Positions 10,382 to 25,951 of a DNA stretch of 64,000 nt are shown in pieces. The DNA lies in assembly GCA_963748215.1 (NCBI GenBank), contig CAVVHS010000006.1, positions 339,259-403,258 of the forward strand, read 5' to 3'. Positions within the stretch are counted from its first letter, which is position 1, and each line of letters starts with the position of its first letter. Position numbers and translations under genes: made by a program. Below the pieces are notes generated by a model that saw only the letters and a program-made list of their open reading frames with translations, had not been told where the DNA came from and made no database searches. This stretch comes from an uncultured Gammaproteobacteria bacterium. GTDB taxonomy: Bacteria; Pseudomonadota; Gammaproteobacteria; UBA9214.

Positions 10382-11110
10382 TTATTTCTCGAGTTCTGCC
10401 GCCCACGGTGCCAGGTGGCGCTGTTCGCGCGGGTTGTCCACCTGGTTGCGCGTCGGGCTGAAGAATACACCCGGTGCATGCAGCAGTTTGCTGATCGGGA
10501 AGATGATCATCAGCGTGGCGACCAGCCCGAGATGCACCAGCAACAGCGGATCTTCGGGAATGGGCTGCCAGTTGAAATACATCAGGCCCAGGAAAAAGGC
10601 CTTGAGCGACACGATGTCGGTGTGCGAAATGTAATCCATGCTCAATCCGGTCAGTGCAATACCCATCAGCAGTGCCAGCATCAGGTGATCGGACAGGGCG
10701 GAGATATAGCGCACCCGGTCCACCAGCACGCGGCGCGCCCACAGGCCGGCCAGTCCGGCGACCATGGCGAAGGCGGCATACAGGCCGAACGGCTGGATGA
10801 GCTCGACCCAGGTCCAGACCGGGTTGGTGAAATAACGCAGGTGGCGTGCCAGCACCAGGAACATGCCGAAGTGAAACAGGTAGCCGAAAATCCAGATCCA
10901 CTTGTTGGAACGGAACAGGCTCTCGAAGAACGCCACTTCCCGGAACATGCGCAGCACGACGCCCTGGCGCGTGACCGGTGCCGGGGTGGTCGGAATCTTC
11001 AAGGGTGCCGGTGTTTTTGCATACTTGCTGATCCTGTAGGCCAGGCCGCCGATCAGCAGGGCGGTGGCAACATAGAACAGAAGTGCATACACAATGGTCC
11101 AGAACGGCAT
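10382..11110 (-). CDS. dsrM: DsrM, NarI-like dihaem cytochrome b membrane subunit
   Basis: 242 aa, five TM helices, conserved His ligands, NarI-like; intact. Confidence 0.8.
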   Translation of the reverse strand: MPFWTIVYALLFYVATALLIGGLAYRISKYAKTPAPLKIPTTPAPVTRQGVVLRMFREVAFFESLFRSNKWIWIFGYLFHFGMFLVLARHLRYFTNPVWTWVELIQPFGLYAAFAMVAGLAGLWARRVLVDRVRYISALSDHLMLALLMGIALTGLSMDYISHTDIVSLKAFFLGLMYFNWQPIPEDPLLLVHLGLVATLMIIFPISKLLHAPGVFFSPTRNQVDNPREQRHLAPWAAELEK

Positions 11111-11186
11111 GCTACCTGGCTCCTGTTAGGGTTGTAAGATTCAGAAGGGCTGCAGGGGATGTCCCCTGCAGCCTTCGGTTGTTGCG

Positions 11187-11522
11187 TCAGACGCAGCCGG
11201 TCGGCTTCGGCAGACCGGCGTACTTGCAGGCCTGCTTGGCGGGACCGTACGGGAACAGCTCGTACAGGTACTTGCTGTTGCCCTTGTCCTTGCCCAGCTT
11301 CTTGCCGATGGCCTTGGTCAGCACGCGAACGGCCGGGGCGATCTGGTATTCCTCGTAGTATTCACGCAGGAAATTGATCACTTCCCAGTGGTTCTCGGTC
11401 AGCTCACAGTCGTCGAGCTTGGCCATGACATCCGCCACGTCCTTGTCCCATGTATTCAGGTCAGCCAGGTAACCTTCTTCGTCAGTTTCGTAAGTCTTGC
11501 CGTTCGCTTCAATTGTACCCAT
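11187..11522 (-). CDS. dsrC: DsrC sulfur-carrier protein
   Basis: 111 aa ending ...PAKQACKYAGLPKPTGCV, with both conserved C-terminal-arm cysteines present; intact. Confidence 0.9.
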   Translation of the reverse strand: MGTIEANGKTYETDEEGYLADLNTWDKDVADVMAKLDDCELTENHWEVINFLREYYEEYQIAPAVRVLTKAIGKKLGKDKGNSKYLYELFPYGPAKQACKYAGLPKPTGCV

Positions 11523-11566
11523 GTGAGGTCTCCTCGTTGGATGACGCTAATCAAAAAAAATGAAAA

Positions 11567-11863
11567 TCAGAGCCAGGACTGTACCTTGTCGTTGGCTGTA
11601 ACCAGATCGACGAACCCGCCGTAATCGATGACGTCGACGCCATCCAGCAGCTTGTCTTCCGTGATGCCGCGCGCGGCCAGGTCCGGCCCGAGCACGGCGA
11701 CCTTGAGGCCTTTCAGCAGGCTTGCCGCCTTGCCGTTTTTCATCGCTCCGTAAATACCATCCTCGATGAGCAGCAACTGGTCGCCATCCTTCATGATGGT
11801 CGATGCCGTGTTCAGGCTGCCGGTGTCGTAGGGTGACTTGTTTACCAGGTGTAACATTGCCAT
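11567..11863 (-). CDS. dsrH: DsrH (TusB-like)
   Basis: 98 aa beginning MAMLHLVNKSPYDT, DsrH/TusB fold; position after dsrF. Confidence 0.75.
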   Translation of the reverse strand: MAMLHLVNKSPYDTGSLNTASTIMKDGDQLLLIEDGIYGAMKNGKAASLLKGLKVAVLGPDLAARGITEDKLLDGVDVIDYGGFVDLVTANDKVQSWL

Positions 11864-11881
11864 TATTCCGGGCTCCCTGTA

Positions 11882-12292
11882 CTAGAAGTTGAACAGCACG
11901 TCTTGCTCGGCGAGCACGTCTGCCATTTCCGCGCGTGTGACCAGGCGGATGGAATCCTTTTCCGCGTAGTCCTCGTCCTCGTCTTCCCAGACCAGGTGTT
12001 GCAGGTCATCCAGGGTCAGGCCGCGTTCCTCGAGGGATTCCTTCTCGACGTAGATCTTGTTGACCTCGTAGTCACCCAGCGCGGCGTAGGTGGGCGAGAA
12101 GTTTTTCATGCCGATGCCCGCGGTGTCCTGGCCCTTGACGAGCTGGTACACACCGTCGTCCAGGAAGGCCATGCTGACGTCCTGTTCGAAGGCGGCGCCG
12201 ATCAGTACCACTTCCAGCGATTCCCACGCATAGATCGTCCCGTAGGGCGCCCTGCGGTTGATGTACATCATTTTCTTGGATTCTTCAGACAT
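11882..12292 (-). CDS. dsrF: DsrF (TusC-like)
   Basis: 136 aa, DsrF/TusC family; position between dsrE and dsrH. Confidence 0.75.
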   Translation of the reverse strand: MSEESKKMMYINRRAPYGTIYAWESLEVVLIGAAFEQDVSMAFLDDGVYQLVKGQDTAGIGMKNFSPTYAALGDYEVNKIYVEKESLEERGLTLDDLQHLVWEDEDEDYAEKDSIRLVTRAEMADVLAEQDVLFNF

Positions 12293-12306
12293 TGCCGCTC
12301 TCCCGC

Positions 12307-12700
12307 TCAGTCGCCGAACACGACCAGTCGATCGCTCTGGACGCCACCTTCGATCAGCTGACCCAGTCCGGAAATGCGGAAGCCGGGGGCGATGTTGGTT
12401 GCGTCCTTGCCGTTACGCTGCGCCTCGCCCTCGTCGACGATGCCGCGCCGCTGGGCGGCAGCCACGCACACCACCATGTCGATGTTGTGTGCCTGTCCCA
12501 GTTCACTCCAGCGCTTGACGATATTGCGATCGTCCTGCGGCGGTGTGGTCAGGCGCGTGCCGTTGTTGACGCCGTCGTGGTAGAAAAAGATACGAAAGAT
12601 CTCGTGTCCCTTTTCCAATGGCCGCCTTGGCGAAAAAGTAGGCCGTGTCCGCGGCCTGGTGCTGGTAGGGCCCCTCGTTAACCTGGATTGTAAGCTTCAT
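12307..12700 (-). pseudogene. dsrE: DsrE (TusD-like sulfurtransferase); 1 frameshift
   Basis: N-terminus MKLTIQVNEGPYQHQAADTAYFFAKAAI is in ORF 12503-12700; the rest (EKGHEIFRIFFYHDGVNN ... CVAAAQRRG ... RLVVFGD) is in ORF 12307-12618. At the junction attgGaaaaggg reads as a 1-nt insertion. Confidence 0.75.
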
Positions 12701-12715
12701 TCACATACCCTCTGA

Positions 12716-13793
12716 TCAGAAACGGATATGGGTTGAAGCGTTCAGGCTTGCACGGGCACCACGCCAGTTGTCGATGTGGTACTTGGTGAACGGCAGCCCG
12801 GTCTTCTCGAAGAAACGCGGCCAGCCGATACGCTCGATCCAGTCGTTGATACGCTCCCAGTCCTTGGCGTCTTCCTTGTAGACCTTGAGGATCTTCTTGA
12901 CGACGGCGGTGGCTTCCGGCCAGCGCGGCGGGTTGTTCGGGATGCCGGAGGCGACCAGCTTCTGGAAGGTCGGCTTGCCGCGGGCATTGGAGTGGTTGCC
13001 GCCCACCCAGATGGCCAGCTTGGAGTGCTCGGCGTCGTTGATCTGCATCGGCGGGCAGGGCGGGTAAGCAGGCACCGCAGCAGATGCACTTCTTCTCGTC
13101 GACTTCCAGCGACGGCTTGCCGTTGACCAGTGCCGGGCGAATGGCCGCGACCGGGCAGCGTGCCACGACCGACGGACGCTCGCAGACGTTGGACAACCAG
13201 GTCGTGGTTGATCTTCGGCGGCTTGGTGTGCTGCACGTTGATGGCGATGTCGCCCTGGCCGCCGCAGTTGATCTGGCAGCAGGAGGTGGTCATGTGCACG
13301 CGGTTCGGCATGTTCGCAGCCTTTGAACTCGTCGATCAGCTCGTCCATCATCGACTTGACCACGCCGGAGGCGTCGGTGCCCGGGATGTCGCAGTGCAGC
13401 CAGCCCTGGGTGTGCGACATCATGGCGACGGAGTTGCTGGGTACCGCCGACGACGAAGCCGGCATCTGTCAGCGCCTTGATCAGCGGCTCGACCTTGGCC
13501 TCGTCGGACACCATGTATTCGATGTTGCTGCGAATGGTGAAGCGCACATAACCCTCGCCGTAGGTGTCACCGATTTCGCACAGCTTGCGCAGGGTGAACA
13601 GGTCGAGGATACGCTGGGTGCCGGCGCGCACGGTCCAGATCTTGTCGCCATTGTTGGCAACGTGCAGCAGGACGCCGGGCTGCGGATCTTCGTGATAGGC
13701 CCACTGCCCGTAGTTCTTGCGCATTACCGGGTGCATGTACTGGAATCCGTCAGGACATCCGGATTCGATCGGCGAACGCATTTCTTGTGCCAT
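12716..13793 (-). pseudogene. dsrB: DsrB, dissimilatory sulfite reductase beta subunit; >=4 frameshifts
   Basis: DsrB segments alternate between three minus-strand frames: 13290-13793 (N-terminus), 12716-13465 (SNSVAMMSHTQGWLHCDIPGTDASG, and again the C-terminus INDAEHSKLAIWVGGNHSN...), 12742-13311 (MTTSCCQINCGGQGDIAINVQHTKPPKI) and 12678-13196 (VDEKKCICCGAC). Shift points fall near 13440, 13320, 13200 and 13055. Confidence 0.8.
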
Positions 13794-13880
13794 GTGATTC
13801 TCCTGAAAATCTCTTCAAGTTTTTGAACAAATCCCGGCGTTTGTACGCCGGGGTTGTCATATATGAACGGGTTGACCGGC

Positions 13881-15147
13881 TTACGCGGAGGCAGCCTGCT
13901 CCTCGGCCTTGCGCTCGAACCACTTCTCGGCTTCTTCGTCCCAGCCGTCCATGCGGACGTAGGAAGACTGGCGCGGGTTGCTGACCATGTTCGGGTCCAC
14001 CTCGACGCCGATGCCTTCGAGGAAGTTGACCAGACCGATACGCTCGATCATTTCACCGCAGCGCTCGTGCTCCAGGCCGTTCTCGGCCCAGAAGTCGATG
14101 ATCTCCTCGGCCATTTCACTGCAGGCTTTCGTAGTCTTCCTCGGTTTCCAGCTTCTTGAACGGGACCACCACGGTACCCATCAGGTCGCCGATCTTCAGC
14201 GTGCGCTTGCCGCCGATCAGGATGGTGACGCCCTTGTCGTCGCCCGGGTGCAGCGCCTTCGGCATGACGTTCAGGCAGTGCATGCAGCGCACGCAGTTCG
14301 TGGTTGTCGACGGTCGATGGTGTCGTCGTCGTTCAGGGTCAGGGCCTTGGTCGGGCAGCGGGTGATGACGTTGTCGATCACGTACTGACGGCCTTTCTTG
14401 CCGACGTAGTCCTTGACTTCTTCCTGGTCGACCTTCATGTCGTCGCGCCAGGTGCCGATGACGGCGAAGTCGGCGCGCTCGATGGCGTTCTGGCAGTCAT
14501 TCGGGCAACCGGAGACCTTGAACTTGAACTTGTAGGGCAGGGCCGGACGGTGCACGTCGTCGGTGAAGTTGTTCACCAGCCAGCGCTGGATGCCGTGCTC
14601 GTTGGCAGCAGGACATTTCGCAGCGCGCCGCACCGACACAGGACATGGCGGTACGCACGCACGGGCCGGCACCACCGAGATCCCAGCCGTACTCGTTGAT
14701 TTCGTCGAAGAAGTGCTGGGTGTTTTCGGTGGTGGTACCGATAAACATGATGTTGCCGGTCTGGCCGTGGAAGGTCACCAGGCCGGAACCCCATTTTTCC
14801 CAGCTGTCGCCGAGCTGGCGCAGCATGTCGGTGGTGTAGTAGTTGCCGGCCGGCGGCTGCACGCGCAGGGTGTGGAATTCCTTCGATTCCGGGAAGGCCT
14901 TGCCGACTTCGGAGAAGCGCGGGATGATGCCGCCGCCATAGCCGTAGACACAGACGGTGCCGCCTTTCCAGTAACCCTTGCGGGTTTCGTAGGAGTGCTC
15001 GAGCTGACCCAGCAAACCGTTGGTGACGTCGTTGATGCGTTCGTCCGGGTGCTCGTCACGCAGCCGCTTGATGCCGGTGATGAAGCTCGGCCAGGGGCCG
15101 TTCTCGAGTTCGTCCAGCATGGGAGTCGGGTAGGTGTTCTTGGCCAT
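13881..15147 (-). pseudogene. dsrA: DsrA, dissimilatory sulfite reductase alpha subunit; >=3 frameshifts
   Basis: N-terminus in ORF 14497-15147 (MAKNTYPTPMLDELENGPW ... SCVGAARCE), the middle in ORF 14271-14675 (KFKFKVSGCPNDCQNAIERADFAVIGTW), the C-terminus in ORF 13881-14114 (IIDFWAENGLEHERCGEMIERIGL). Total span 422 codons, matching full-length DsrA. Confidence 0.85.
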
Positions 15148-15507
15148 GGCAATAATCTCCTGGATTGTTTTCTACACCAATTGGTTTGCTACTGATGACA
15201 GCGCGCGCTGTCGCCCTGCCGGGCAACTGGAAATCAGCGAGTTATACGGAATTACAACAGCGTAACTCTCAGTTGAGCGCATTGTAGAAAGGCTCTGCGG
15301 GTATACATATCCTACCCTTGGGGTGGCGCCTATATGGGCCCGTATCCCGAACGGGGTATTGGCAGAATATTGATTTAATTTCCGGTAGTTATCAGAGTTG
15401 CCCGGATTTACTAATGCGTACAGAACTTTTTCTTATATTAACGCGCACTTAAGTAACCCTTTCTCAACCGGAGAAACGGGATTGCCGGTGTGATTTCAGC
15501 TATTTAG

Positions 15508-15524
15508 ATGAGAATCACTCTCAT
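15508..15524. promoter_or_regulatory. Perfect 6-5-6 inverted repeat ATGAGA-N5-TCTCAT in the divergent dsrA / dioxygenase promoter region
   Basis: Read directly from the sequence in the AT-rich 480-bp intergenic region between dsrA (15147, -) and the 15633 (+) gene. Confidence 0.25.
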
Positions 15525-15632
15525 TAGCAATTGGCCGCCGGCAGCGCAGGCAAGTCCCGGCCCCATGTATTAAACATTTAAGTGTGACCGTAAGATACAG
15601 GCTCCTGAAAAACCGGCCCGTCGCACAACTCC

Positions 15633-16577
15633 ATGATACACAGTCCAGACAGCTTTCGACCCTTTGACCTTGCCGGCGATGCCGACTACCGGGTCTGGCG
15701 CGCGTGGAAGCTGGATGGCTACCCCGTGGCCGCCGCCGACCTGATTGTGGACGTCGGCGATCCGGCGCACCTGTCAGCGGCCGAGCATGCGGCGATCCTG
15801 GCGCGCTGCCGCAAGGCCAATATGGCGATTTATGCCGTCCGGGGTGGTGGTAGCGCGGACAAGGAGGCGGTGCGCGCACTGGGCAGGCAGTTCGGGCTGG
15901 AACGTCTGGACATGAACCTGCGCGCCGACGAGGACAGCATCACCGCGTTGCGGGTGGTACCGGAATCGGCGGGGACCCGTTACATCCCCTACACCAACCG
16001 GCCGCTGAACTGGCATACCGACGGTTACTACAACACGCTCGACGAACAGGTGCGGGCCATCCTGATGCACTGCGTGTCCGCCGCGGCCAGCGGCGGCGAG
16101 AGTGTGCTGTTCGATCACGAACTCGCCTACCTGTTGCTGCGTGACGAGAATCCGGATTACATTCGCGCGCTCATGCAGCCGGACGCCATGACCATCCCGG
16201 CCAACATAGAGGACGGCCGGCAGATCCGCGGCGCGCAATCCGGTCCGGTCTTTACGGTTGAAAAGGGTAGCAACGCCCTCCATATGCGTTATACGGCACG
16301 CACCCGCAGTATCGAGTGGAAGGACGACCGGGACGTGCGCAATGCCATCGAATTCCTGCGTGAATTGCTGGACAGCGACCTGCCCTGGATCTTCCGGCAC
16401 CGGCTGCAGGCCGGACAGGGCATTATCTGCAATAATGTACTGCACAGGCGCGATGCCTTTGACGACGCGGCGGGTGACGGACAGGCCCGGCTGCTGTACC
16501 GGGCGCGTTATCACGACCGGATCCGCGCGACCGTCGCCGACAATGATTTTTATGGAGACAGGCAATGCTGTGGTTGA
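15633..16577 (+). CDS. TauD/TfdA-family Fe(II)/2-oxoglutarate-dependent dioxygenase-like protein
   Basis: 314 aa with a His-x-Asp motif in NWHTDGYYN and overall TauD-like spacing; divergent from dsrA. Confidence 0.6.
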   Translation: MIHSPDSFRPFDLAGDADYRVWRAWKLDGYPVAAADLIVDVGDPAHLSAAEHAAILARCRKANMAIYAVRGGGSADKEAVRALGRQFGLERLDMNLRADEDSITALRVVPESAGTRYIPYTNRPLNWHTDGYYNTLDEQVRAILMHCVSAAASGGESVLFDHELAYLLLRDENPDYIRALMQPDAMTIPANIEDGRQIRGAQSGPVFTVEKGSNALHMRYTARTRSIEWKDDRDVRNAIEFLRELLDSDLPWIFRHRLQAGQGIICNNVLHRRDAFDDAAGDGQARLLYRARYHDRIRATVADNDFYGDRQCCG

Positions 16578-16756
16578 GCGAAGTGCTGATACAGCAGCAT
16601 GACATCGAGTCCTTCGAGGCCCTGAAGCAGGCCATCAGCGCGCGTGCGCGCGGCGGCGAGATCCATTTCCGCATGGATGTGCGTCCGCCGTTTCCCGATA
16701 CACCCGAAGACTGGGAAGACCGGCTGGAAGCGGCCTTCTACTCGACAGGCAATTAA
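16565..16756 (+). CDS. Small hypothetical protein (63 aa), translationally coupled
   Basis: Start overlaps the preceding stop by 13 nt and the next gene starts 13 nt after its stop; coding-like codon usage. Confidence 0.35.
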   Translation: MLWLSEVLIQQHDIESFEALKQAISARARGGEIHFRMDVRPPFPDTPEDWEDRLEAAFYSTGN

Positions 16757-16768
16757 CCCCGGCGGTCA

Positions 16769-17467
16769 ATGACAAGCATGTTCTGGAACGACGAAAAGCA
16801 GAAAGCACCGGACTTCGTGATCCCGGATGACGTCGTCGACCTGGCGTTCAGGATCGGCTGCCCGACACTGCCGCTGGATCACGCCCATGCCCTGTCGCGA
16901 GCCCTGCTCGAGGTCCTGCCCTGGCTGGATGACGAGCCGCATGCCGGCGTCCACCTGATTCACGGTGCCGCCTCCGGTAACGGCTGGTATCGCCCCGAGG
17001 ATGCCGCCAGCGAGCTGCTGCACCTGTCGCGGCGTACCCGCATGCGCCTGCGTGTGCCCAGGCATCGCCTGGAGGATGCGCGCAAGCTGACCGGCCGGCG
17101 GCTCGATATCGGCGGCCATCCGCTCGAAGTCGGCGACTCGGAGGTTTTCCTGCTGAGCAGCCTGTCGACGCTGTTCTCGCGCTACGTCATGACCGGGGCC
17201 GACACCGATGAACAGGCCTTCCTGGAGGAGGCCACGCGTGGGCTGCAGGCCATCGATATCGATTGCCGCAAAATGCTGGGGGGCATCAGCCATGCTCTGC
17301 AGTTCCCGGACGGACCGGTACACACCCGCAGCCTGATGGTGGCGGATCTCGAGCCGGAGCAGTCGGTGCGACTGCAGCAGCTCGGACTGGGCGAGGGGCG
17401 CAGCATCGGCTGCGGCCTGTTCCTGCCGCACAAGGGCATCAAGCCGGTCAACGACGCAAAGGAATAG
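16769..17467 (+). CDS. Hypothetical protein with a Cas6f(Csy4)-like Gly-rich C-terminal motif (EGRSIGCGLFLPHKGIKP)
   Basis: 232 aa. The C-terminus resembles the Csy4 G-rich loop (EGGFTCYGLSKGGFVP) and the N-terminus DLAFRIGCPTLPLDHAHAL resembles DIRLRPDPEFPPAQL. There is no CRISPR array or other cas gene in the window, and the family assignment is not verified. Confidence 0.45.
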   Translation: MTSMFWNDEKQKAPDFVIPDDVVDLAFRIGCPTLPLDHAHALSRALLEVLPWLDDEPHAGVHLIHGAASGNGWYRPEDAASELLHLSRRTRMRLRVPRHRLEDARKLTGRRLDIGGHPLEVGDSEVFLLSSLSTLFSRYVMTGADTDEQAFLEEATRGLQAIDIDCRKMLGGISHALQFPDGPVHTRSLMVADLEPEQSVRLQQLGLGEGRSIGCGLFLPHKGIKPVNDAKE

Positions 17468-17694
17468 CCTTGTCGGTCAGGCGCTGTCCCGGGCGAGGCC
17501 TGCCATTCCGGTGTTGCGCGATAAATACCTGCCCGCGCGGCTGAGACCCGCCAGGACAGCCGGCAAACCGTCGTATAAGGAAACGCACTTCGGCCGGCTT
17601 CCCATATGGGATATGTTCGGTGCTCGGGCAACTGGCTATAGTTGCGCTTATTCAATAATTTACAACGACTTGACTCGCATCCGGAGAGAAGATC

Positions 17695-17898
17695 ATGAGC
17701 AATAAACAGGAACTGATCGCCAAACTGCTGGAAATGCAGAAGAAATTCATCGATTACGAGCATGCCAATGGCGTGGAGATGAAGGACTACTTCGCCGCCG
17801 ATGAAGGCCATCCACTGAAGGGCTTCCGCCAGGAATACACGGACCTGGCTAACCAGCTGGTCGACATCGCGCACACCGAAAAGGGTTCGCATCGCTAG
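17695..17898 (+). CDS. Small hypothetical protein (67 aa)
   Basis: ORF with an upstream AT-rich promoter-like region, followed by a strong terminator. Confidence 0.4.
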   Translation: MSNKQELIAKLLEMQKKFIDYEHANGVEMKDYFAADEGHPLKGFRQEYTDLANQLVDIAHTEKGSHR

Positions 17899-17914
17899 TC
17901 AGGCGTAATAGCAA

Positions 17915-17951
17915 TAAAAAGCCGCATTCCGAAAGGGTGCGGCTTTTTTTT
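17915..17951 (+). terminator. Rho-independent terminator
   Basis: Hairpin aaaaaGCCGCAttccgaaagggTGCGGCtttttttt. Confidence 0.6.
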
Positions 17952-18187
17952 GGCGTGACCTCTAAGGCCAGTAGCGGCCACAGAGGGCACAGAGTACACA
18001 GAGAAAAATCAAATCAGAAAATGCCTGGCCGACACTCGGCACCTTTGTCTGCAGGCGGCCGGGTTACCACCGGAATCCCGTGCCTTGCACCGCTGGTGAC
18101 AGCTTACGCGGAAGATATGAAATAATTCTGTGAGCTCCGTGTTCTCTGTAGCGACTGTTTATTGAATGACGGCTTGCCCGTCCGGAG

Positions 18188-18532
18188 TCAGTACCCGCCC
18201 TTGCGCAGGATGAATGGCAGACCGGCGATCCGGTTACCCTGCTTGCTGGGGGCGAAGGGGAACAGTTCAAAGAGTTCCTTGCTGCTGACTTTCTTGTCCC
18301 AGATCTTGGCCATGCTCTTGTTGATCACCCGCTCCATGGGCTGTGAGCCGTTGTTATCGAAGTATTCCGAGCGCAGGTAATTCAGTACATCGAAATGCGC
18401 CTCGGTCAGCTCGATACCTTCCTTGGCGGCCAGTGCTTTCGCAACATCCTCATCCCAGGCGGTCGGGTCGGTGAGATTGCCGTTCTCATCCAGTTCGATG
18501 CTCTTGCCGTTTACGTCCAGTGCCATTTTCAT
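18188..18532 (-). CDS. DsrC/TusE-family paralog lacking both conserved cysteines
   Basis: 114 aa: MKMALDVNGKSIELDENGNLTDPTAWDEDVAKALAAKEGIELTEAHFDVLNYLR... aligns with DsrC along its length, but the C-terminus is SKQGNRIAGLPFILRKGGY rather than AKQACKYAGLPKPTGCV. Confidence 0.7.
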   Translation of the reverse strand: MKMALDVNGKSIELDENGNLTDPTAWDEDVAKALAAKEGIELTEAHFDVLNYLRSEYFDNNGSQPMERVINKSMAKIWDKKVSSKELFELFPFAPSKQGNRIAGLPFILRKGGY

Positions 18533-18740
18533 GCTCCTGATTCAACTTGAGAAAAGAATTTTGAGGCGGAATTGTATTGCAATACAGCCGTCATCGGAAG
18601 AGGTGCGAACACGACCCGGTATGCATTTTACAGGCATTCCACAGGGTATTTTCCCGTGCCACAACGCCTGGACGATGTCTTCAGGGAAGCCGGATGTGCG
18701 GATAAAATACCCGTTCCGAAAATTGATCGATGGCTGACAC

Positions 18741-19250
18741 ATGCGTATTCGGGAATTCACCCTGCCAGACCCGGCGGCACTCAACGAGCGTCTGTATGCC
18801 CGGTTTCTGGAATTATCCGGCACCGACCGGATCAGGCAGACCCATCATTTTGCCGGCCGTTTCGAGAACACCTACATCGCCGCGGCTGACATACCGGAGA
18901 TTGCCGCGGTTCTGGATGTGTTCCGGCAGCAGGCCGCGCAGTGGCTGGACGTTGCCGCGGATACGCTGAAGGCCGGGTTCTGGTTTAACGCCATGGGACC
19001 GGGGCACGTGACTTCACCGCATCACCACGACGAGAACGACGAGCTCCTTTCGGCGGTGTACTACATCCGCGTACCCGCAAACTCCGGCGAGTTGATCCTG
19101 TACGACGACGATACGCCGGTCACCGTGCGGCCGGAAGAAGGCAAGCTGGTGATGTTCGGTCCTGATGTGATGCACGAGGTGACGGTCAACAACAGCCCGG
19201 AGCTGCGCCTGTCTGTCGGCATGAACATCGGGCCGGCTGATGCGGAATAG
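18741..19250 (+). CDS. 2OG-Fe(II) oxygenase superfamily protein (TIGR02466-like cupin)
   Basis: 169 aa with HHHDENDELLSAVYYIRVP ... MHEV, a H-x-D...H facial-triad pattern. Confidence 0.5.
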   Translation: MRIREFTLPDPAALNERLYARFLELSGTDRIRQTHHFAGRFENTYIAAADIPEIAAVLDVFRQQAAQWLDVAADTLKAGFWFNAMGPGHVTSPHHHDENDELLSAVYYIRVPANSGELILYDDDTPVTVRPEEGKLVMFGPDVMHEVTVNNSPELRLSVGMNIGPADAE

Positions 19251-19337
19251 CCGGTTGGTCAAAATCTCTCACGGCGATTTCGTCACTAACGCCCAACCCA
19301 GGCAACGGGAAAATATTTCACCTGTTTGGTATGGGCG

Positions 19338-20057
19338 CTATTTCTTTCCTCCCTCCAGTCGCCCCCCCTGCTGAAGCCATTGGGCCACCAGCCAGCAGGC
19401 GGCGGCCCAGGCCGCTCCGGCCGCCCAGCCGGCCAATACATCGCTTGGCCAGTGAACCCCGAGATAGACGCGACTGACACCGACCAGCAACGTAGCCAGC
19501 ACAGAGCAGCCGATCAGGTAGATCCGTACCCTGCGCGCGGCGTGTGCCACCGCCAGCAAGGCGCCGCCGGTGAGATAAACCACCGCCGACAGCATCGAAT
19601 GGCCGCTGGGAAAACTGGATGTATAGATCATCGAACCGTGAGCCACCAGGTCCGGGCGTGGCCGGTCAAAACCGTTCTTGAGTGCCAGGCTCAGCAGCAG
19701 GCCACCCAGTATCGCCGACAGTACGAACAACGCGACCCGCGGCAGACCCTGTAGCCAGAGGTAGCCTATCGAAACCAGGGTGAGCAGGCCGAGCACCCCG
19801 ATACCCCCCAGGGCCGTGAAGTCACGGAACATTTCCTCCACCCAGGCAGGGCCCAGCGGGTCGCCGGGGTCCCCTGGTACGCGCGTCGCCAGCAGCAGCC
19901 ATCGGTCGAGCCGCGCGGTGTCGCCTTCCAGCATCTCATCGGCGATGCCGATAAAGGCGAATAATCCAAAGCCGAAAATCAATAGTGCCAGCGAGGCAAA
20001 ATGATGCCGGGCGAATAGTCTGGGAGAGACAGAAGCCGTTTTTTGCTTAGCACTCAC
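19338..20057 (-). CDS. PAP2-family membrane phosphatase
   Basis: KxxxxxxRP (GFDRPRPD), PSGH and SRVYLGVHWPSD motifs with several TM helices. Confidence 0.7.
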   Translation of the reverse strand: MSAKQKTASVSPRLFARHHFASLALLIFGFGLFAFIGIADEMLEGDTARLDRWLLLATRVPGDPGDPLGPAWVEEMFRDFTALGGIGVLGLLTLVSIGYLWLQGLPRVALFVLSAILGGLLLSLALKNGFDRPRPDLVAHGSMIYTSSFPSGHSMLSAVVYLTGGALLAVAHAARRVRIYLIGCSVLATLLVGVSRVYLGVHWPSDVLAGWAAGAAWAAACWLVAQWLQQGGRLEGGKK

Positions 20058-20188
20058 CTGGCATTACCCCTGAAATAAAAGGGCCAGAAACATTTTCTGA
20101 ATTGGCATCAGTAAAATTCTGTGTGCTCTGTGCACTCTGAGGCAGGTTATTTGTATTTTCCCTGCGCCTCCGCGCGAGACAGGGTTTC

Positions 20189-20860
20189 TCAGACATCCGA
20201 CCACATGCGCACCAGGTTGATGTAGGACTGGTTGACCTGCACGGTTTCCGCTGCGTCCGGTCTATCATGCAACAATACCTCGCGTGCCTGGTTCAGGTCG
20301 TGCAGCAGCGCGCGGCGGTCGGGTTCGCGCACCAGGCTCTGTATCCAGCTCACGGCGACCAGGCGTTCGCCGCGGGTGACTTCGGCGACGCGGTGGATGC
20401 TGGAGGAGGGGTAGATCACGGCGTCGCCGGCCGACAGCTTGACCTGCTGGTCGCCGAACGGGGTCTGGATGCATAGCTCGCCGCCATCGTAGTCCTGCGG
20501 TTCATTCAGGAAGATCGTTACCGACACATCGGACCGGTACAGGTCACCCTGGCCCATGATCGGGTCGTCGACATGATTACCGTAGGCCATGCCGGGCAGG
20601 TAGCGGGCGTAGTAGGGCGTGGCGGTCTTGCGTGGCATGGCTGCGCTGCGGAATACCGCATGCCGGACCAGGCTGCCCATCACCAGGTTGTTGAGTTCGC
20701 TCATGCGTGCCGGGTCCAGCGCCAGTTCCTCGTTCAGCTTGACGCGCCGTGCCGCCGTACCGGCAGAGCCGCGGCCGTCACCGAAGCGTCCGCCGGCGAT
20801 CAGCCGTTCGACGGTATTGAGTTGCGAGCGGTCGAGCACGCCCTCTATACGGGTGAGCAT
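20189..20860 (-). CDS. PKHD-type hydroxylase (YbiX-like Fe(II)/2OG oxygenase)
   Basis: 223 aa; MLTRIEGVLDRSQL start and HxD...H motifs typical of YbiX/PiuC. Confidence 0.7.
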   Translation of the reverse strand: MLTRIEGVLDRSQLNTVERLIAGGRFGDGRGSAGTAARRVKLNEELALDPARMSELNNLVMGSLVRHAVFRSAAMPRKTATPYYARYLPGMAYGNHVDDPIMGQGDLYRSDVSVTIFLNEPQDYDGGELCIQTPFGDQQVKLSAGDAVIYPSSSIHRVAEVTRGERLVAVSWIQSLVREPDRRALLHDLNQAREVLLHDRPDAAETVQVNQSYINLVRMWSDV

Positions 20861-20941
20861 GAATCAGTCCTGCAGCCGGTGGCGGGTATGCGGTAACATA
20901 AACACGATACAGTCAGTGTAACCAAAATCAGGGCGCTAATC

Positions 20942-21265
20942 ATGATTCTGAACGTGGTGGTGGAGGAACAGGTCTATCCGGTCAAGGTGCCGGATATGCT
21001 GATCAACGAGGCAGGTGACTTCTTCGACAAGATGGATGCCGACATGGATAAGGGCTGGCAGATGAGTCGCGACTGGGTGGATAACCCGACCCTGGAACAA
21101 CGCTGCCAGATCGTCGGTGACAAGATGCTCACCGCCATGCACCAGGACAACAAGAAGATGCTGCTGCTGCTGTCCGCCTACATCCTCGCGCGGGCGCCGG
21201 GCGTGACCGGCATCCGTATCGATAGCAATGGCGAGATGCTGGAAACCGAGCTGGTGACGGACTGA
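20942..21265 (+). CDS. Hypothetical protein (107 aa)
   Basis: ORF only. Confidence 0.4.
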   Translation: MILNVVVEEQVYPVKVPDMLINEAGDFFDKMDADMDKGWQMSRDWVDNPTLEQRCQIVGDKMLTAMHQDNKKMLLLLSAYILARAPGVTGIRIDSNGEMLETELVTD

Positions 21266-21292
21266 GTGCACTGACTGCCGCGTAGACTGCCC

Positions 21293-21676
21293 ATGGCCGA
21301 CCTGTTTTCCGTTACCGCGCCCTTACTGATCCGTTATCCCGATGGCCACCGGCACATCATGCTGGAACGCTTCGCGTATGGCCCGGGCCATGCCCGTAAT
21401 AATGGCTCGGCTTCTCCGGCGGGACTGGTCTATTTCCGACCGTTCTGGGACCGGCTGGGTGAGGAGGGCATTTGCCTGGTGCAGGGCGAACTGCGCGGTG
21501 ACGGGCCATGGAAGGTCGGTGCCGCGGTGATCACGGTGCTGGGCTGCCACGGCAGCGATCCCGTCGAGGCTGCCGAGTACGCCGACTGGCTGCTGCATCG
21601 CGAGCAGCTCGCCGACAACTACCCGGATCGTGAAACGCTACGGGACATGGCACGCAGTGCCGGTTACCTGCCCTGA
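21293..21676 (+). CDS. Hypothetical protein (127 aa)
   Basis: ORF only; paired with the preceding gene. Confidence 0.4.
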   Translation: MADLFSVTAPLLIRYPDGHRHIMLERFAYGPGHARNNGSASPAGLVYFRPFWDRLGEEGICLVQGELRGDGPWKVGAAVITVLGCHGSDPVEAAEYADWLLHREQLADNYPDRETLRDMARSAGYLP

Positions 21677-22119
21677 GCGGTGCTGCCGCCGAACCGCTTG
21701 CTCATTTTCACGTGGGCGATACGGTTGAACAGCGTGTGTCCGGCGCCATCCACCGCATAACCCTGCTTGCGATAGAAGCCAAGCGCGGTTTCCCGTGCAT
21801 CCAGTACGATGCGTGCGGCGCCCAGTGCGCACGCCCTGTGCTCGAGCGCATGGAGCAGCCGGCTGCCGAGACCGCTGCGCTGCTGCGCTACCTCGACCGC
21901 CATGAAGCGGATCTGCGCCTCGCGGATGGTGTTGAAATGCAGGCGTCCCACGGCCAGCGGCTTGCCGCCGTCATCGACCAGCATGAGATGGGTGCTGCCG
22001 GCATCCTGCGCATCGCACTCGCTGCCGCGTGGCTGGTCCCAGGGCGCGCGCAGGATGCGCCAGCGCAGGTCGTAGTATCGCCGGTACTCGTCGGCGCTGG
22101 TCGGCTCGATGAGGCGCAT
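21664..22119 (-). CDS. GNAT-family N-acetyltransferase
   Basis: QRSGLGSRLL...GFYRKQGY acetyl-CoA-binding motif. Confidence 0.7.
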   Translation of the reverse strand: MRLIEPTSADEYRRYYDLRWRILRAPWDQPRGSECDAQDAGSTHLMLVDDGGKPLAVGRLHFNTIREAQIRFMAVEVAQQRSGLGSRLLHALEHRACALGAARIVLDARETALGFYRKQGYAVDGAGHTLFNRIAHVKMSKRFGGSTAQGR

Positions 22120-22139
22120 GCCGGGCCGGGTGCGGTTGC

Positions 22140-22752
22140 TCAGGCGAACACGACCCAGGTAGTGGCGATGTACTTGACGCCCTGCTCGAGTCTGGCGCCA
22201 CGGTGTTCGTGGGTCCAGAACGGCGGAAACAGCAGCAGCTTGCCGGCCTCGGGCTGAATCTGGACGTCCTGGCAGGAAAACTCGGTGGCCCCGCCGGGGC
22301 CGGGCACATCGTTCAGGTACCAGACCGCCACCAGCTGGCGCTGGCTGAAATCGTGGCTGCCGCCGTCGATGTGCCAGTGATAGAACTCGCCGGGCAGGGT
22401 GCGCTGGATGGCATAGCCGCTGTCCTTGAATGGGCCGCCGAAAAAGGGATAGGCATTGCGGAATTCCTGGATGGCCCGTCCCAGCGACCGAAACAGCTCG
22501 CGATCGATGTCCTGCCAGTGTTCCTTGCCGCTGACCACCAGGTCGGTCGAGCGCTTGATGTCGCGTTCCTGCTGCACGGTCTGGCCGACGCGGCCGGGAT
22601 ACTGTTCATCCGTGCGTTCCTCGAAGCGGCGGATCATCTCGTTGCATATGTCGAGCGGCAATGCGCGTGGCTTCTCGAAGATGAAACTCAGCGGCTTTAC
22701 CTCGCGGAGAGTGGTCAGTGGCGCGGTCGGTGCCGTAGCGGATTGTTTCATG
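22140..22752 (-). CDS. 2OG-Fe(II) oxygenase superfamily protein (TIGR02466-like), second copy
   Basis: FYHWHIDGGSHDF ... FPPFWTHEH. The track ORF runs to 22817; the likely start is MKQSATAP. Confidence 0.55.
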
Positions 22753-22771
22753 ACAGTCGGTGTCTGCGTGG

Positions 22772-23857
22772 TCAGAGCTGGTTCGATTCGATGGTGGCGA
22801 TGAGTTGCTGCCGGCACCCGGTGCCTTGCCGGTCGAACAGGTCAAGCAGCTCGCCGGCCAGTGTCGTCCAGTGCGCCGCCGAGCGGTCAGAGAGTTGCTC
22901 GAGTTCACGGGTATTCCCGGTAATCGTCCAGATCTCGTAGGCGGCGAGCAGTTGCGGAAACAGTTCCTTGCGCATGCTGGACAGGCTGCCGATGTAGCAA
23001 TGCAGTGTCGCCGGGTTGTTCTCCGCCAGCAGGCCGGGCAGCGTCGAAAGCGCGTCCGCCAGGTGATCGCGCACGGCGCGCAGCATGATCTCCTCCCTGC
23101 TGTGGCCGAGTCTCACCAGCATGTCTTCCCAGCCGGGACCGAGCAGTTTGCCGGCCTGCACCTCGCCGATCTCGTGCAGCATCACCGTGTTCAGCTCGCT
23201 GTCGGTCATCGCCTCGAGCGATTCGTCCGGTGCGTTCTCGAAGTCATAGCACTCGAGGGCGTGCTGCATGGCATTGGCCGGGCGGTTCCAGCGCCATTCC
23301 TCGAGTCGTTCCCACAGCATCCTGCGCAGCGACTCGCGACGGATGAAGATGGTGCCGTCCAGGCTCATGGCCGGCGGCGCAGCGAGGTCGCGCGCCAGCT
23401 CCCGGCCGGATACCAGCAACTGGTAATCATCACGTTGCCGGTGGACCTCGAGCGTGCCCATGAAGAACACCGGCTTCATGCCGGGACCGTAGCCGCTGCT
23501 GTAGACATACCCGAGCGGATTCAGCACGGCATTGATCGCGGCGCTATCGAAAGGACTGAAGCGTTCATTGCCGACCGGTATATTCTCGAAGCGGCTGTGC
23601 TCGAGGCTGTCCCAGTGCGTCTCGCGCCGGGTCAGCCAGTCGGTCAGCTGGTCGTGCGGCAAGGCGGCCCCGAACGGCAGGCCGTGTTCCCAGCGAAAGT
23701 ACTCGCGCATCTTGAGCAGGTAGACGCACAGGGTGTAGTTGGTGGCGAATTGCGCATCGGAGATATGGCAGTTGGTGCGCACAGCACCGAGCGTCGGCAT
23801 CAGTGCGCTGATGTCGGCTGCTGCTGCGAATGGACTGGGTCTGCCGTTGGTCTTCAC
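22772..23857 (-). CDS. Hypothetical protein (361 aa)
   Basis: Long ORF with coding-like composition; overlaps the downstream gene start (translational coupling). Confidence 0.5.
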   Translation of the reverse strand: MKTNGRPSPFAAAADISALMPTLGAVRTNCHISDAQFATNYTLCVYLLKMREYFRWEHGLPFGAALPHDQLTDWLTRRETHWDSLEHSRFENIPVGNERFSPFDSAAINAVLNPLGYVYSSGYGPGMKPVFFMGTLEVHRQRDDYQLLVSGRELARDLAAPPAMSLDGTIFIRRESLRRMLWERLEEWRWNRPANAMQHALECYDFENAPDESLEAMTDSELNTVMLHEIGEVQAGKLLGPGWEDMLVRLGHSREEIMLRAVRDHLADALSTLPGLLAENNPATLHCYIGSLSSMRKELFPQLLAAYEIWTITGNTRELEQLSDRSAAHWTTLAGELLDLFDRQGTGCRQQLIATIESNQL

Positions 23858-23900
23858 ACTCGTTACCCTGATAATTCCGCTGTTTTTTCTATGCTAGCAT

Positions 23901-24521
23901 GTGACATTATGCCTCGCCATTATCATCGTCTGGCAGCCAGGACGGGGCGGCAGGAGAGCCGGTGTGAGAGTCAAGAGCAAGTGGAATATCAAGGAACGGG
24001 AACGCAGTCTGGCCGAGATCGGCGGCGCGGCAGCGTTTATCCTGTGGCGCATTGCGCAGCAGGGTACGCTCAACCTCGAGAACGAGGGCTTCCAGACCGA
24101 CACCAACGCCCAGCGCCTGGATATCATCGCGGAGTTTGTGGCTTTTCTGGTGCACATGGCCGACCGGCTGAAGGCCACGGAGCTGGACCAGACGCAACGC
24201 CAGGAATTCATCACTTCGCTGGCGCGTCACCTGGCGGACCAGGTGCAGGACAACCGTACCGATGCGCAGGGCAAGGGAGAATACCGGCAGGCGTTTATCG
24301 AACTGCTCAACTCACGTACCGCGGACTACGCCGAATTTACCATGGTGGATGGCGAGCCCGGCTACGCCCTGAAACGCTACTTCGGGGAGAACGTGCGCGC
24401 CGTGATGGGCGAGAAGGACAACAAGTGGATCACCGACCAGGTGATGGAAATCGAGTTGCCCGAGGCGATGACACCGCTGCGCAAGGCGCTGCGCGAGCTG
24501 TTTGCGCGCCCGGAGACATAA
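23901..24521 (+). CDS. Hypothetical protein (~190-206 aa)
   Basis: ORF; possible GTG start near 23961; followed by a terminator. Confidence 0.45.
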   Translation: MTLCLAIIIVWQPGRGGRRAGVRVKSKWNIKERERSLAEIGGAAAFILWRIAQQGTLNLENEGFQTDTNAQRLDIIAEFVAFLVHMADRLKATELDQTQRQEFITSLARHLADQVQDNRTDAQGKGEYRQAFIELLNSRTADYAEFTMVDGEPGYALKRYFGENVRAVMGEKDNKWITDQVMEIELPEAMTPLRKALRELFARPET

Positions 24522-24549
24522 AAAAAGGCGGGGCAGGCCCGCCTTTTTC
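24519..24549. terminator. Bidirectional rho-independent terminator between convergent genes
   Basis: aaaaaaAGGCGGGgcagGCCCGCCTttttc. Confidence 0.55.
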
Positions 24550-24567
24550 AGTTCGACCCCGCGGGGT

Positions 24568-24762
24568 CTATTTTTTCCACTCGCCGAAGTTGTCGGCGTT
24601 GTGCGCCTTGCCGTCTTCGTAGCCGGCGGAGTAGGCGTCGGTGACACGCTGCTCTTCACGCTCCGGGTTCAGCAGGTAACCGCCCTGCCAGCCCTGGATG
24701 TAATCCGGGTCGACGCCATTTTCTTCCATCTTGGTGACTGCGTTGTAGTATTCCTGGTTCAT
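24568..24762 (-). CDS. Small hypothetical protein (64 aa)
   Basis: ORF ending at the bidirectional terminator. Confidence 0.35.
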   Translation of the reverse strand: MNQEYYNAVTKMEENGVDPDYIQGWQGGYLLNPEREEQRVTDAYSAGYEDGKAHNADNFGEWKK

Positions 24763-24820
24763 CGTTGCTTCCTCGTCTCGGTCTATGTTTGGGTTGAAAG
24801 GGTTGCCGCCGCGCGCCTGT

Positions 24821-25951
24821 TCAGCCGCGTGCCGCCGTAAAGTGTGACAGTGCTGCCCCCGAATCGATTGCCGCTGCTACCGCTGCCGCCGCGTCCTCGA
24901 GGGTGGCGTGGCGGCGCAGGTGATGCAGCATGATGGCGGCGCCGTAGACCAGGCTGTCACGTGCCGCGCCCGGTATTCCCTGCAGTGCGGACAGGCCGGC
25001 CGCTGCCGCAGCCTGCGCCGCTGCCGCGCTGTCGAATGCTGCTGTGTCACTGCCTTCGATGGTGTCCGGTGCATTGTCCTGCGGGAGCGGGACAGTGCGG
25101 GTCTGCTGCACGATACCGATCATTTCGGGGTGTACTTCCTGCGGGTATTCCGCGCCGCCGTCATGATAGCAGAATACCAATGCCGGTTGTTTCAGCGAGG
25201 GAATGACGCCGCCCTCGACGCCGCGAATGATGGCCGCCGAGGCGAAGCCGGCGTGGCGCGCCAGCTGCGCATAGACCGGCGGATAGGCCTTGTGCACATA
25301 GCCGGTCATCAGATGGGTACGTGCGGCACCGCGCACCGGTCCGGTCAGCGTTTCGACCGTGGTCAGGACCGGTCGCTTCACGATGCGGGTGCGCAGCGGG
25401 ATCAGGTCATGCAGGCGGGGCGCGGAGTGCTTCTGGTCCACGTAGCCCCAGCCGATGGCGGGGTCGGCGATCCGGGCGGCAGCCTGTTGCGGGGAGAGGT
25501 CGACCTCGACGCCGGCGGCACGCAGTACCTTGCGGTGCGTGACGCCATACTTCGGGCCGACGGCTTCCAGGCCGTGCGTGACGGCCGGTACACCGCAGGC
25601 GGCAAATACAGCCGGCAGGAAGGGCGACATCGGCAGTCCACGCGTGTAACCGTCATAGGGATCGGCCACGTCGATGAGTTCGTCGACGGCGGCGGTGACC
25701 GGGTTCATGGTGTCGAGAATGGCCTGCAGTACGCCGGCGTTCTCCGCGTCGGTCTCGCGCTTCATGCGCAGGGCGATCAGCAGCACGGCCGCCTGAACCG
25801 GATCCGATTTTCCTTCCAGGATGTGACGCATGGCGGCATAGGCCTCATCGAAGGGCAGGTCCTTGCTGAACTCCGGGCCGGTCGCCACCTTCTGGATGCA
25901 GCTACGCATCAACAGGTCGGTGTCGCTCCCGCTTATCATCCGTGCCGCCAT
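24821..25951 (-). CDS. TrpD2/YbiB-family protein (anthranilate phosphoribosyltransferase-like, glycosyl transferase family 3 fold)
   Basis: 376 aa with TrpD-like N-terminal helical and alpha/beta domains. Not in a trp operon context. Confidence 0.65.
   Translation of the reverse strand: MAARMISGSDTDLLMRSCIQKVATGPEFSKDLPFDEAYAAMRHILEGKSDPVQAAVLLIALRMKRETDAENAGVLQAILDTMNPVTAAVDELIDVADPYDGYTRGLPMSPFLPAVFAACGVPAVTHGLEAVGPKYGVTHRKVLRAAGVEVDLSPQQAAARIADPAIGWGYVDQKHSAPRLHDLIPLRTRIVKRPVLTTVETLTGPVRGAARTHLMTGYVHKAYPPVYAQLARHAGFASAAIIRGVEGGVIPSLKQPALVFCYHDGGAEYPQEVHPEMIGIVQQTRTVPLPQDNAPDTIEGSDTAAFDSAAAAQAAAAAGLSALQGIPGAARDSLVYGAAIMLHHLRRHATLEDAAAAVAAAIDSGAALSHFTAARG

Follow-up and report, generated by a model that had tools for sequence, protein, structure and literature searches.

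A cysteine-free DsrC-family protein with an invariant RKGGY tail, encoded beside a Cas6-like gene in proteobacteria

A stretch of 64,000 nucleotides from an uncultured gammaproteobacterium (contig CAVVHS010000006.1, positions 339,259 to 403,258), referred to here as the window, contains two genes of the DsrC family. One is part of the dsr operon (dsrABEFHCMKLJOPN...), which begins at about 15147 and extends on the minus strand to about 2973; this canonical DsrC keeps both cysteines, fills the dsrEFH-dsrC-dsrMK slot and serves as the reference paralog (Table 1). The other, which is the subject of this report, is located 6.7 kb away, past dsrAB and the dsrQ module, and does not occupy the operon position of a bona fide DsrC. 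It encodes a protein that contains no cysteine at all and ends in the residues RKGGY, hereafter called the RKGGY protein. Both the paralog and the dsr operon are on the minus strand, contrary to a first-pass annotation of the window, which had assigned the gene to the strand opposite that of the dsr genes; it is opposite in strand only to the TauD/Cas6-like genes. The same annotation was right to describe the gene as embedded among oxygenase genes, which comprise dsrQ, the oxygenase gene at 18741-19250, the PKHD gene (all in Table 1) and a further 2-oxoglutarate (2OG) oxygenase gene at 22140-22817.

Table 1. Features of the RKGGY gene and its surroundings. Positions are those of the window, except for h234, which is given by locus.
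Feature	Position	Strand	Remarks
Cysteine-free DsrC-family coding sequence	18188..18526	-	112 aa + stop; C-terminus AGLPFILRKGGY; starts almost certainly at ATG 18526
C-terminal arm, residues 93-112, PSKQGNRIAGLPFILRKGGY	18191..18250	-	RKGGY codons 18191-18205; CysB replaced by Asn, CysA absent
Shine-Dalgarno sequence AGGAG	18534..18538	-	7 nt upstream of ATG 18526; in nearly all loci with the window order
Promoter-like element	18571..18599	-	-35 TTCCGA, 17-nt spacer, -10 TACAAT; assigned from conservation
14-bp perfect palindrome TGTATTGCAATACA	18573-18586	-	Overlaps the putative -10 of the dsrC-like gene
GC-rich hairpin with A-run/T-run flanks, AAAAAGCCGCATTCCGAAAGGGTGCGGCTTTTTTTT	17916..17951	.	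Between the convergent s67 and dsrC-like genes; likely bidirectional terminator
Cas6-like protein	16769..17467	+	PF09559 E 1.8e-64; TIGR02807 (Cas6/Cmx6) 143 bits, above cut-off
TauD-family Fe(II)/2OG dioxygenase, dsrQ	15633..16577	+	Divergent from dsrA
s63, 63-aa acidic protein, motif PSYPDTPPDWED	16565..16756	+	Conserved; between dsrQ and the Cas6-like gene
s67, 67-aa protein without family match	17695..17898	+	Conserved
2OG-Fe(II) oxygenase, PF13759/TIGR02466-like	18741..19250	+	Divergent pair with the DsrC-like gene in the window order
PKHD-type Fe(II) dioxygenase, YbiX-like	20189..20860	-	Neighbour in 57/80 loci
Canonical DsrC, both cysteines, ...KQACKYAGLPKPTGCV	11187..11522	-	Between dsrH and dsrM; reference paralog
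h234	L061 6433-7155; L085 7555-8259; L091 5469-6167		Chromatiaceae, Sedimenticolaceae and Acidithiobacillales-like loci

The open reading frame (ORF) noted at first (18188..18532, minus strand) has 114 aa and the C-terminus SKQGNRIAGLPFILRKGGY. Translation almost certainly starts at the second Met (ATG at 18526), which gives 112 aa, because the AGGAG is 7 nt upstream of this ATG but a mere 1 nt away from the first one, and because nearly all homologs begin with MAL or MAI and the first ATG is missing at other loci. The upstream in-frame ATG at 18532, which the first-pass annotation had taken as the start, is probably unused.

The product matches the Pfam family DsrC (PF04358) with an E-value (E) of 9.3e-32 and 110 bits (cut-off 24.9) over profile positions 2-101 of 107, and only the Cys-bearing end of the profile is left unmatched. 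A score of 94.3 bits against TIGR03342 (cut-off 53.5) places it in the DsrC/TusE/DsvC superfamily, while the TusE equivalog model NF008562 gives 75.4 bits against a cut-off of 191. DsrC structures in the PDB are matched with E 5e-20 by the single sequence (A. vinosum DsrC, 1YX3) and with 4e-35 by a profile. An AlphaFold2 (AF2) model built from a 110-sequence alignment has a predicted local distance difference test score (pLDDT) of 92.5 and is confident except for the last three residues; it replaced an earlier model from 19 close homologs with a pLDDT of 64.7. In a Foldseek search with the AF2 model, the top eight matches are all DsrC/TusE structures with template modelling (TM) scores of 0.76-0.87, and no PDB structure beyond DsrC/TusE is significant. 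The best match, 1YX3 (TM 0.87, root-mean-square deviation 1.6 A, 39% identity), identifies the DsrC fold, i.e., an N-terminal beta-hairpin and a helical bundle with an extended C-terminal arm. Pfam, the 1YX3 alignment and Foldseek therefore agree on the full-length DsrC-fold paralog proposed initially. The ratio of nonsynonymous to synonymous substitution rates (dN/dS), 0.05-0.22 against 14 orthologs, indicates strong purifying selection, and the product is, as judged from these sequence comparisons, a functional cysteine-free member of the DsrC/TusE fold.

The distinguishing feature of the protein is its arm. In comparison with A. vinosum DsrC (1YX3), the CysB context KQACRFAGLP reads KQGNRIAGLP, and where DsrC has the CysA tail KPTGCV, the paralog has FILRKGGY, with two residues more; within the window, the arm KQGNRIAGLPFILRKGGY of the paralog stands against KQACKYAGLPKPTGCV of the canonical DsrC. 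The absence of both arm cysteines claimed in the first-pass annotation is thus confirmed and extends to the whole protein, which has zero cysteines, an isoelectric point (pI) of 4.99 and 18 D/E against 14 K/R residues. It contains neither the penultimate CysA nor, about 10 residues upstream, the CysB of bona fide DsrC (motifs CxxxGxPxPxxC or AGLPKPTG-C, as defined in PMC8477390 and PMC8190135), nor the C-terminal cysteine by which TusE accepts sulfur from TusD. Since there is no thiol, DsrC or TusE chemistry is impossible for the RKGGY protein, and the inability to form the DsrC persulfide or trisulfide, also noted at first, holds.

In place of the cysteines, the terminus itself is invariant. 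All 120 best homologs (75-100% identity) have the RKGGY end, the patterns being [RK][IVM]AG[LS]..RKGGY and ...AGLP[FY][VI]xRKGGY, as do 119 of the 120 best matches of a search seeded with a more distant member ending in ESRRKGGY. Taking close and distant clade members together, 239 of 240 have the RKGGY end and no CysA; the sample of 241 members was selected by tail, and the independent evidence for the tail is provided by the 120/120 and 119/120 counts. The longest invariant run across the 241 members is the hinge plus the arm, LFP..PSKQG..AGLP...RKGGY, and the DsrC hinge residues H44, R52, P63, R66, K70, LFP, P93, K95, Q96 and GLP are retained. The three residues before RKGGY vary and can be (F/Y)(V/I)x, ES(R/M/K) or QST. 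In both AF2 models the arm has the lowest confidence: residues 93-112 were below 50 in the first model, and in the second residues 101-109 are at about 80 and the last three residues below 50. By alignment, the arm and terminus are the best-conserved and most constrained part of the protein.

A check for artefacts was needed because the dsr genes of the window are visibly damaged by 1-nt insertions. The coding sequences of dsrA, dsrB, dsrK and dsrL are each spread across two or three frames, and the N-terminal part of dsrE is missing. The uncompensated insertions (14608, 14315, 14296, 14118, 13438, 13316, 13195, 12615, 10169, 8381 and 8301) are absent from the related loci L081 and L082 (97-99.6% identity) and from L002. 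The damaged stretch, 8250-15147 on the minus strand, covers dsrL, dsrK, dsrE, dsrB and dsrA, and the flanking non-dsr genes do not have such frameshifts. The dsr frameshifts are due either to assembly errors that cluster here or to a pseudogenisation of dsr that happened recently. A frameshift or assembly artefact as the cause of the missing cysteines was rejected: the other two frames at the 3' end do not contain KPTGCV, the tail is conserved among homologs, and independent assemblies carry the identical gene. The Illumina assembly L082 is 99.6% identical over about 10.1 kb with a single indel, in dsrA, and its copy of the gene encodes the same 112-aa sequence. The Logan assembly L083 aligns to the window without gaps at 99.98%.

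Proteins with the RKGGY end form a broad and distinct proteobacterial clade, as far as can be told from alignment and tree. When 1.84 billion cluster representatives were searched with a HMMER profile, 1796 matches of the DsrC family were obtained, with the RKGGY end in about 17 of the best 150 clusters (50% identity representatives). A second, word-index search, seeded with the ESRRKGGY member (50% identical to the window protein), gave 1834 matches, the best of which are named by source as Paracoccaceae, Sinisalibacter, Roseiarcus, Hyphomicrobiales, Chromatiales and Acidithiobacillales-like metagenome-assembled genomes. The clade is large, with about 650 and about 1,800 non-redundant database matches for the two queries, of which the lower-ranked may be other DsrC-family proteins. 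In a neighbour-joining (NJ) tree from which the tail columns were left out, the RKGGY sequences group together, apart from 2-Cys DsrC and 1-Cys TusE; the grouping with canonical TusE that, according to the first-pass annotation, would have spoken against a separate paralog does not occur. The window protein has the signature of the clade, consisting of the RKGGY end, the arm longer by two residues, and NNxxQPxxR / LFPxxPSKQG. Annotation pipelines usually label these proteins TusE or 'tRNA 2-thiouridine synthesizing protein E'.

Two further observations concern the family at large. A second Cys-less tail type, ...AGL(M/L)RT(R/K)GEH, is found in P0217, P0232 and at about 9471 (minus strand) in L102, where the GEH-type gene is, in this one case, within 4 kb of a RKGGY gene; because this tail type exists too, Cys-less DsrC homologs are not one clade. 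Multi-domain DsrC-like proteins also occur (P0121 with 541 aa, P0122, P0129, P0131 and P0133-P0137), having two to five tandem DsrC-like domains or a C-terminal DsrC domain on 220-350 aa, and several of them are missing the canonical cysteines.

The genomic context of the RKGGY gene was analysed at 80 loci, one genome per species, all of them proteobacterial by sequence, although a few have odd bin labels. The first-pass annotation had proposed that co-occurrence with the neighbouring oxygenase genes be checked; it is indeed seen for the TauD-like dsrQ, but the tightest partner is the Cas6-like gene and dsrQ comes next. A Cas6-like gene is located within about 0.8 kb of the RKGGY gene at 66 of the 80 loci. 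It precedes the RKGGY gene in the same direction in 36 of them and is convergent with it in 30, the latter being the arrangement of the window; five of the 14 loci without it are cut by contig ends. In the window, 0.72 kb separate its end at 17467 from the stop codon of the paralog. At 26 loci the sequence extends for at least 7 kb to either side; 24 of these have both the Cas6-like gene and dsrA and 21 have TauD, with dsrA no more than 8 kb from the RKGGY gene in these 24. The reverse test, with 80 metagenome loci (L092-L171) fetched via the Cas6-like protein, found the RKGGY gene in all 37 loci with at least 1.3 kb downstream and TauD upstream in 30 of the 31 with enough upstream DNA. The dependence is asymmetric: the sampled Cas6-like genes are always accompanied by a RKGGY gene, whereas a RKGGY gene can occur where no Cas6-like gene is present.

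The commonest gene order is dsrQ-s63-(h234)-cas6-like-dsrC-like-s67, divergent from dsrAB and with the PKHD gene opposite; in most lineages s67 is the next gene after the dsrC-like gene and shares its strand. This arrangement extends to distant clade members. The ESRRKGGY loci L085 and L091 have a dsrQ-s6x-(h23x)-cas6-like-dsrC-like string divergent from dsrAB, and the QSTRKGGY locus L090 has dsrQ-s64-cas6-like-dsrC-like on a short contig, with dsrAB out of reach. An oxygenase gene of the 18741 type forms a divergent pair with the dsrC-like gene in about 37 loci; the Chromatiaceae/Sedimenticolaceae arrangement lacks it. The protein h234 (232-240 aa, conserved, acidic, no Pfam family) is encoded between s63 and the Cas6-like gene where it occurs, and no homolog of it is present anywhere in the window.

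The Cas6-like protein matches PDB 8FCJ_B, a type I-B Cas6, with E 4e-19 over residues 17-219 and retains the G-rich loop, GLGEGRSIGCGLF (GLGxxRxxGCGxF), which indicates a genuine full-length Cas6 homolog at the level of sequence. Cys31, Cys215 and His38/62/65/221 are invariant, and 2372 homologs are found in the database. The pipeline annotation is 'type I-MYXAN Cas6/Cmx6', and neither a CRISPR array nor a repeated hairpin was found in the 64-kb window.

The upstream region of the RKGGY gene suggests that it is probably transcribed on its own and at a high level, and that its product is probably abundant. An element of the window type, CTCTTCCGAT-N~10-ATTGCAATACAAT, is conserved in about 36 loci; the palindrome/ATTGCAATACAAT core could be an operator besides a promoter element. 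The Chromatiaceae/Sedimenticolaceae-type loci have GGTTTAACAAAnnCTGATATTCAAATAnAATC and a long leader instead, and a strong AGGAG is present in both gene orders. Scans around the gene with sigma-70 and terminator consensus sequences gave nothing above shuffled expectation, and in an Rfam scan of 15000-21500 the terminator hairpin was the sole match and stayed below threshold. The possibility that the spacer from the Cas6-like to the dsrC-like gene encodes a conserved structured RNA was set aside, as the spacers differ by lineage and have the look of a terminator plus a promoter. Separate transcription at a high level has likewise been reported for dsrC itself, which has a promoter of its own (PMC3368242).

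The RKGGY gene of the window is part of an island of about 14 kb (about 15600-29500; also in L085 and L091) that lies beside dsrAB and is conserved across distant Gammaproteobacteria. Its genes are dsrQ, s63, cas6-like, s67, dsrC-like, two to three 2OG oxygenase genes, h107, h127, GNAT, DUF6866, h206, s64, GT3-like, Sel1, h384, glutaredoxin and CysG, and most members have no assigned function; Pfam and NCBIfam gave no credible family for s63, s67, h107, h127, h206, h384, h234 and s64. In the window, the paralog is followed by the 2OG oxygenase gene 18741-19250, a PAP2 phosphatase gene, the PKHD gene, two unknowns and GNAT, and further on by a 2OG oxygenase gene, DUF6866, a glycosyltransferase-3-like gene, Sel1, glutaredoxin and CysG. 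The PAP2 phosphatase gene (19338-20057, minus strand) is an insertion in comparison with L001 and L002 (about 920 bp versus 42-84 bp) and is shared with L081-L083. The L085 island additionally contains rhodanese, KatG, thioredoxin and TauE. Among the Pfam-scanned ORFs of the window, no match to TusBCD-type or MnmA families was found, dsrEFH themselves excepted. Elsewhere in the sample, on the Rhodobacterales/Paracoccaceae-type contigs L084, L087 and L089 described below, a PP-loop ATPase (PF01171, TtcA/TilS-like) is encoded 2-6 kb downstream of the RKGGY gene.

The RKGGY protein resembles DsrC in fold, length, the LFPxxPxKQxxxAGLP hinge with its flexible arm, and the genomic link to dsrAB. It differs in having Asn for CysB, no CysA, the tail (F/Y)(V/I)xRKGGY with two additional residues, a distinctive NNxxQPxER/INK region and a position outside the dsrH-dsrC-dsrM slot. 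With TusE it shares the superfamily model TIGR03342, but TusE keeps the penultimate Cys that is missing here, and the RKGGY protein groups away from the 1-Cys sequences in the tree. The Cys-less "RspA" type (Venceslau et al. 2014, as summarised in PMC8477390) is described there as having no arm cysteines and no AGLPKPTG-C motif. The RKGGY protein lacks both arm cysteines and the DsrC motif, and in kind it fits a Cys-less ("RspA-type") DsrC, a match made by published description.

As for the neighbouring genes, a tauD-like gene divergent from dsrA is known as dsrQ from aerobic chemotrophic sulfur oxidisers (Lenk et al. 2012, as cited in Loffler et al. 2020). The statement on dsrQ in Loffler et al. 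2020 speculates about sulfonate cleavage and mentions only the tauD-like gene. The TauD-like gene of the window is divergent from dsrA as published and has the RKGGY gene in the same string, whereas s63, h234, cas6-like, dsrC-like and s67 are not discussed in that statement. In the literature searched, which did not include Lenk et al. 2012 and Venceslau et al. 2014 themselves, neither the RKGGY tail nor its association with Cas6 is mentioned, nor are the genes that follow dsrQ, and a search for the A. vinosum paralogs Alvin_0028/0345/0732/1508 found nothing on the RKGGY clade. An apparent 'DsrC' match with 132 occurrences is D. shibae 'DsRC-LH1' and irrelevant. The RKGGY tail and its Cas6 pairing thus appear to be undescribed so far.

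The reading favoured here, although tentatively, is that the RKGGY protein is a non-redox docking adaptor or effector of the dsrQ/Cas6-like module. It keeps the DsrC architecture, in which a helical globular body is joined through the LFPxxPxKQxxxAGLP hinge to a flexible arm, and mechanically it would act like DsrC: it would dock on a partner, and its arm would enter a pocket there, but it would not carry sulfur. In sulfur oxidisers, its partners would be the products of dsrQ-s63-(h234)-cas6-like-[dsrC-like]-s67, encoded beside an oxidative-type dsrAB, and the closest of them would be the Cas6-like protein. The protein may physically bind the Cas6-like or DsrQ proteins, with the arm as its business end, and the module may serve the reverse Dsr (rDsr) pathway under oxic conditions. 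Somewhat doubtful is the wider proposal that the RKGGY protein, a domesticated Cas6, DsrQ and s63/s67/h234 make up a dedicated oxidative-Dsr accessory machine in oxygen-exposed sulfur oxidisers, in which the DsrC fold would serve anew as a plug or adaptor free of cysteine and the RKGGY arm would enter a Cas6-like or dioxygenase partner, possibly on RNA or as a target of hydroxylation.

Several observations weigh against a docking role within this module. The bootstrap value of the RKGGY clade is 36, a weak support that is expected because the tree has only 104 columns. The window lineage has the dsrC-like gene in inverted orientation, as a pair with the additional oxygenase gene 18741-19250, and many metagenome loci have a terminator-like hairpin after the Cas6-like gene, ahead of the dsrC-like gene; owing to its own probable promoter, the hairpin and the inversion, co-transcription with the Cas6-like gene is not required. 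Moreover, RKGGY genes without the module exist in several lineages. In nine Chromatiaceae-type loci (GC about 0.65) the gene lies near glmM-folP-ftsH, with a canonical 2-Cys DsrC/TusE of 98 aa encoded 1.5 kb upstream. On the Rhodobacterales-type contigs L084 (9001-9342) and L089 (7001-7378) it is found between rnpA and yidD, and in L087 (7001-7342) it is a few kb from rpmH-rnpA-yidD; none of these three contigs has a dsr, TauD or Cas6-like gene nearby. In L088 the gene is alone, and in Roseiarcus (L086) it comes right after GT3-like, dsrN-like and cysG genes. Since RKGGY genes occur without the module, the function of the family is not strictly dependent on the Cas6-like protein or DsrQ.

Loci of this kind also bear on the idea that the protein acts on DsrAB (or DsrEFH/DsrMK) as a decoy or modulator, binding at the DsrC sites with a non-reactive RKGGY arm inserted, and thereby gates, protects or allosterically tunes the reverse sulfite reductase of sulfur oxidisers exposed to oxygen, or helps with siroheme(amide) loading. 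The proximity of dsrA at the well-flanked loci, the retention of hinge residues common to true DsrC, the siroheme genes (dsrN-like and cysG) ahead of the Roseiarcus gene, and the presence of cysG, glutaredoxin and dsrN in the conserved island of the window are all consistent with such a role, and DsrD (PMC8794893) provides a precedent for an accessory protein that tunes DsrAB. This reading is nevertheless unlikely, as RKGGY genes are present on contigs without nearby dsr genes, e.g., beside rnpA, and the tightest and reciprocal neighbour is the Cas6-like gene rather than dsrAB. In addition, basic residues line the substrate channel of DsrAB, and an arm with a charge of +2 should be unfavourable there. 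The reciprocal pairing (37 of 37), the full-length Cas6 homology with the G-rich loop, and the position of the Rhodobacterales-type genes between rnpA, encoding the RNase P protein, and yidD would suit an RNA-linked role together with a domesticated Cas6, whose fold is that of an endoribonuclease that binds RNA hairpins, in processing of dsr-region mRNA or in tRNA handling, comparable to TusE on MnmA-tRNA. Such a role is improbable in view of the lack of an array or repeated hairpin in the window, of an Rfam family in the flanking intergenic regions, and of conservation in the Cas6-to-dsrC-like spacers across lineages, which look like a terminator plus a promoter; the intergenic DNA around the gene is also indel-rich between close relatives.

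The first-pass annotation had suggested a repurposed DNA- or protein-binding module, and a transcription factor of the RspA type, whose HTH (helix-turn-helix)-like core would bind DNA, e.g., the dsrA/dsrQ promoter, and regulate sulfur-oxidation genes, would fit the location of the gene beside a divergent promoter region. A. vinosum DsrC is reportedly able to bind dsr promoter DNA. A DNA-binding HTH is, however, not supported for a protein of pI 5.0 whose structural matches to winged HTH (wHTH) regulators are insignificant (E 1.4-5, none below 1; TM 0.3-0.4), and the description as a degenerate module does not suit an arm that is the best-conserved part and ends in an invariant RKGGY, which is not required for binding DNA. 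With conservation peaking in the flexible arm and terminus rather than in the helices, and with a strong Shine-Dalgarno sequence and a conserved promoter-like element that suggest an abundant product, a regulator is quite improbable. The arm could instead be a substrate, if a neighbouring Fe(II)/2OG oxygenase (DsrQ, 18741 or PKHD) hydroxylated Arg, Lys or Tyr of RKGGY as an O2 switch. Protein hydroxylases use invariant basic or aromatic tails on disordered arms, and four oxygenase genes surround the DsrC-like gene; in about 37 loci it is paired divergently with the 18741 oxygenase gene, and at 57 of 80 loci a PKHD gene is adjacent. No oxygenase is universal, however, the 18741 type being absent from the Chromatiaceae/Sedimenticolaceae arrangement, and the best family matches of DsrQ are gamma-butyrobetaine/TMLD-like small-molecule enzymes, all far below cut-offs, which makes a substrate role for the tail very unlikely.

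Dissimilatory sulfur metabolism centres on DsrC as the substrate that carries sulfur, and its Cys-less relatives have been noted without a known function. The present analysis turns a vague "maybe regulatory" into a testable module, with named partners, an RKGGY arm to mutate and named carrier organisms. The labels "TusE / sulfur relay protein" and "type I-MYXAN Cas6" mislead metabolic and CRISPR surveys of sulfur-oxidiser metagenomes. If the accessory machine were real, it would give Cys-less DsrC proteins their first functional context and would exemplify the recruitment of a Cas6 for a task other than CRISPR immunity.

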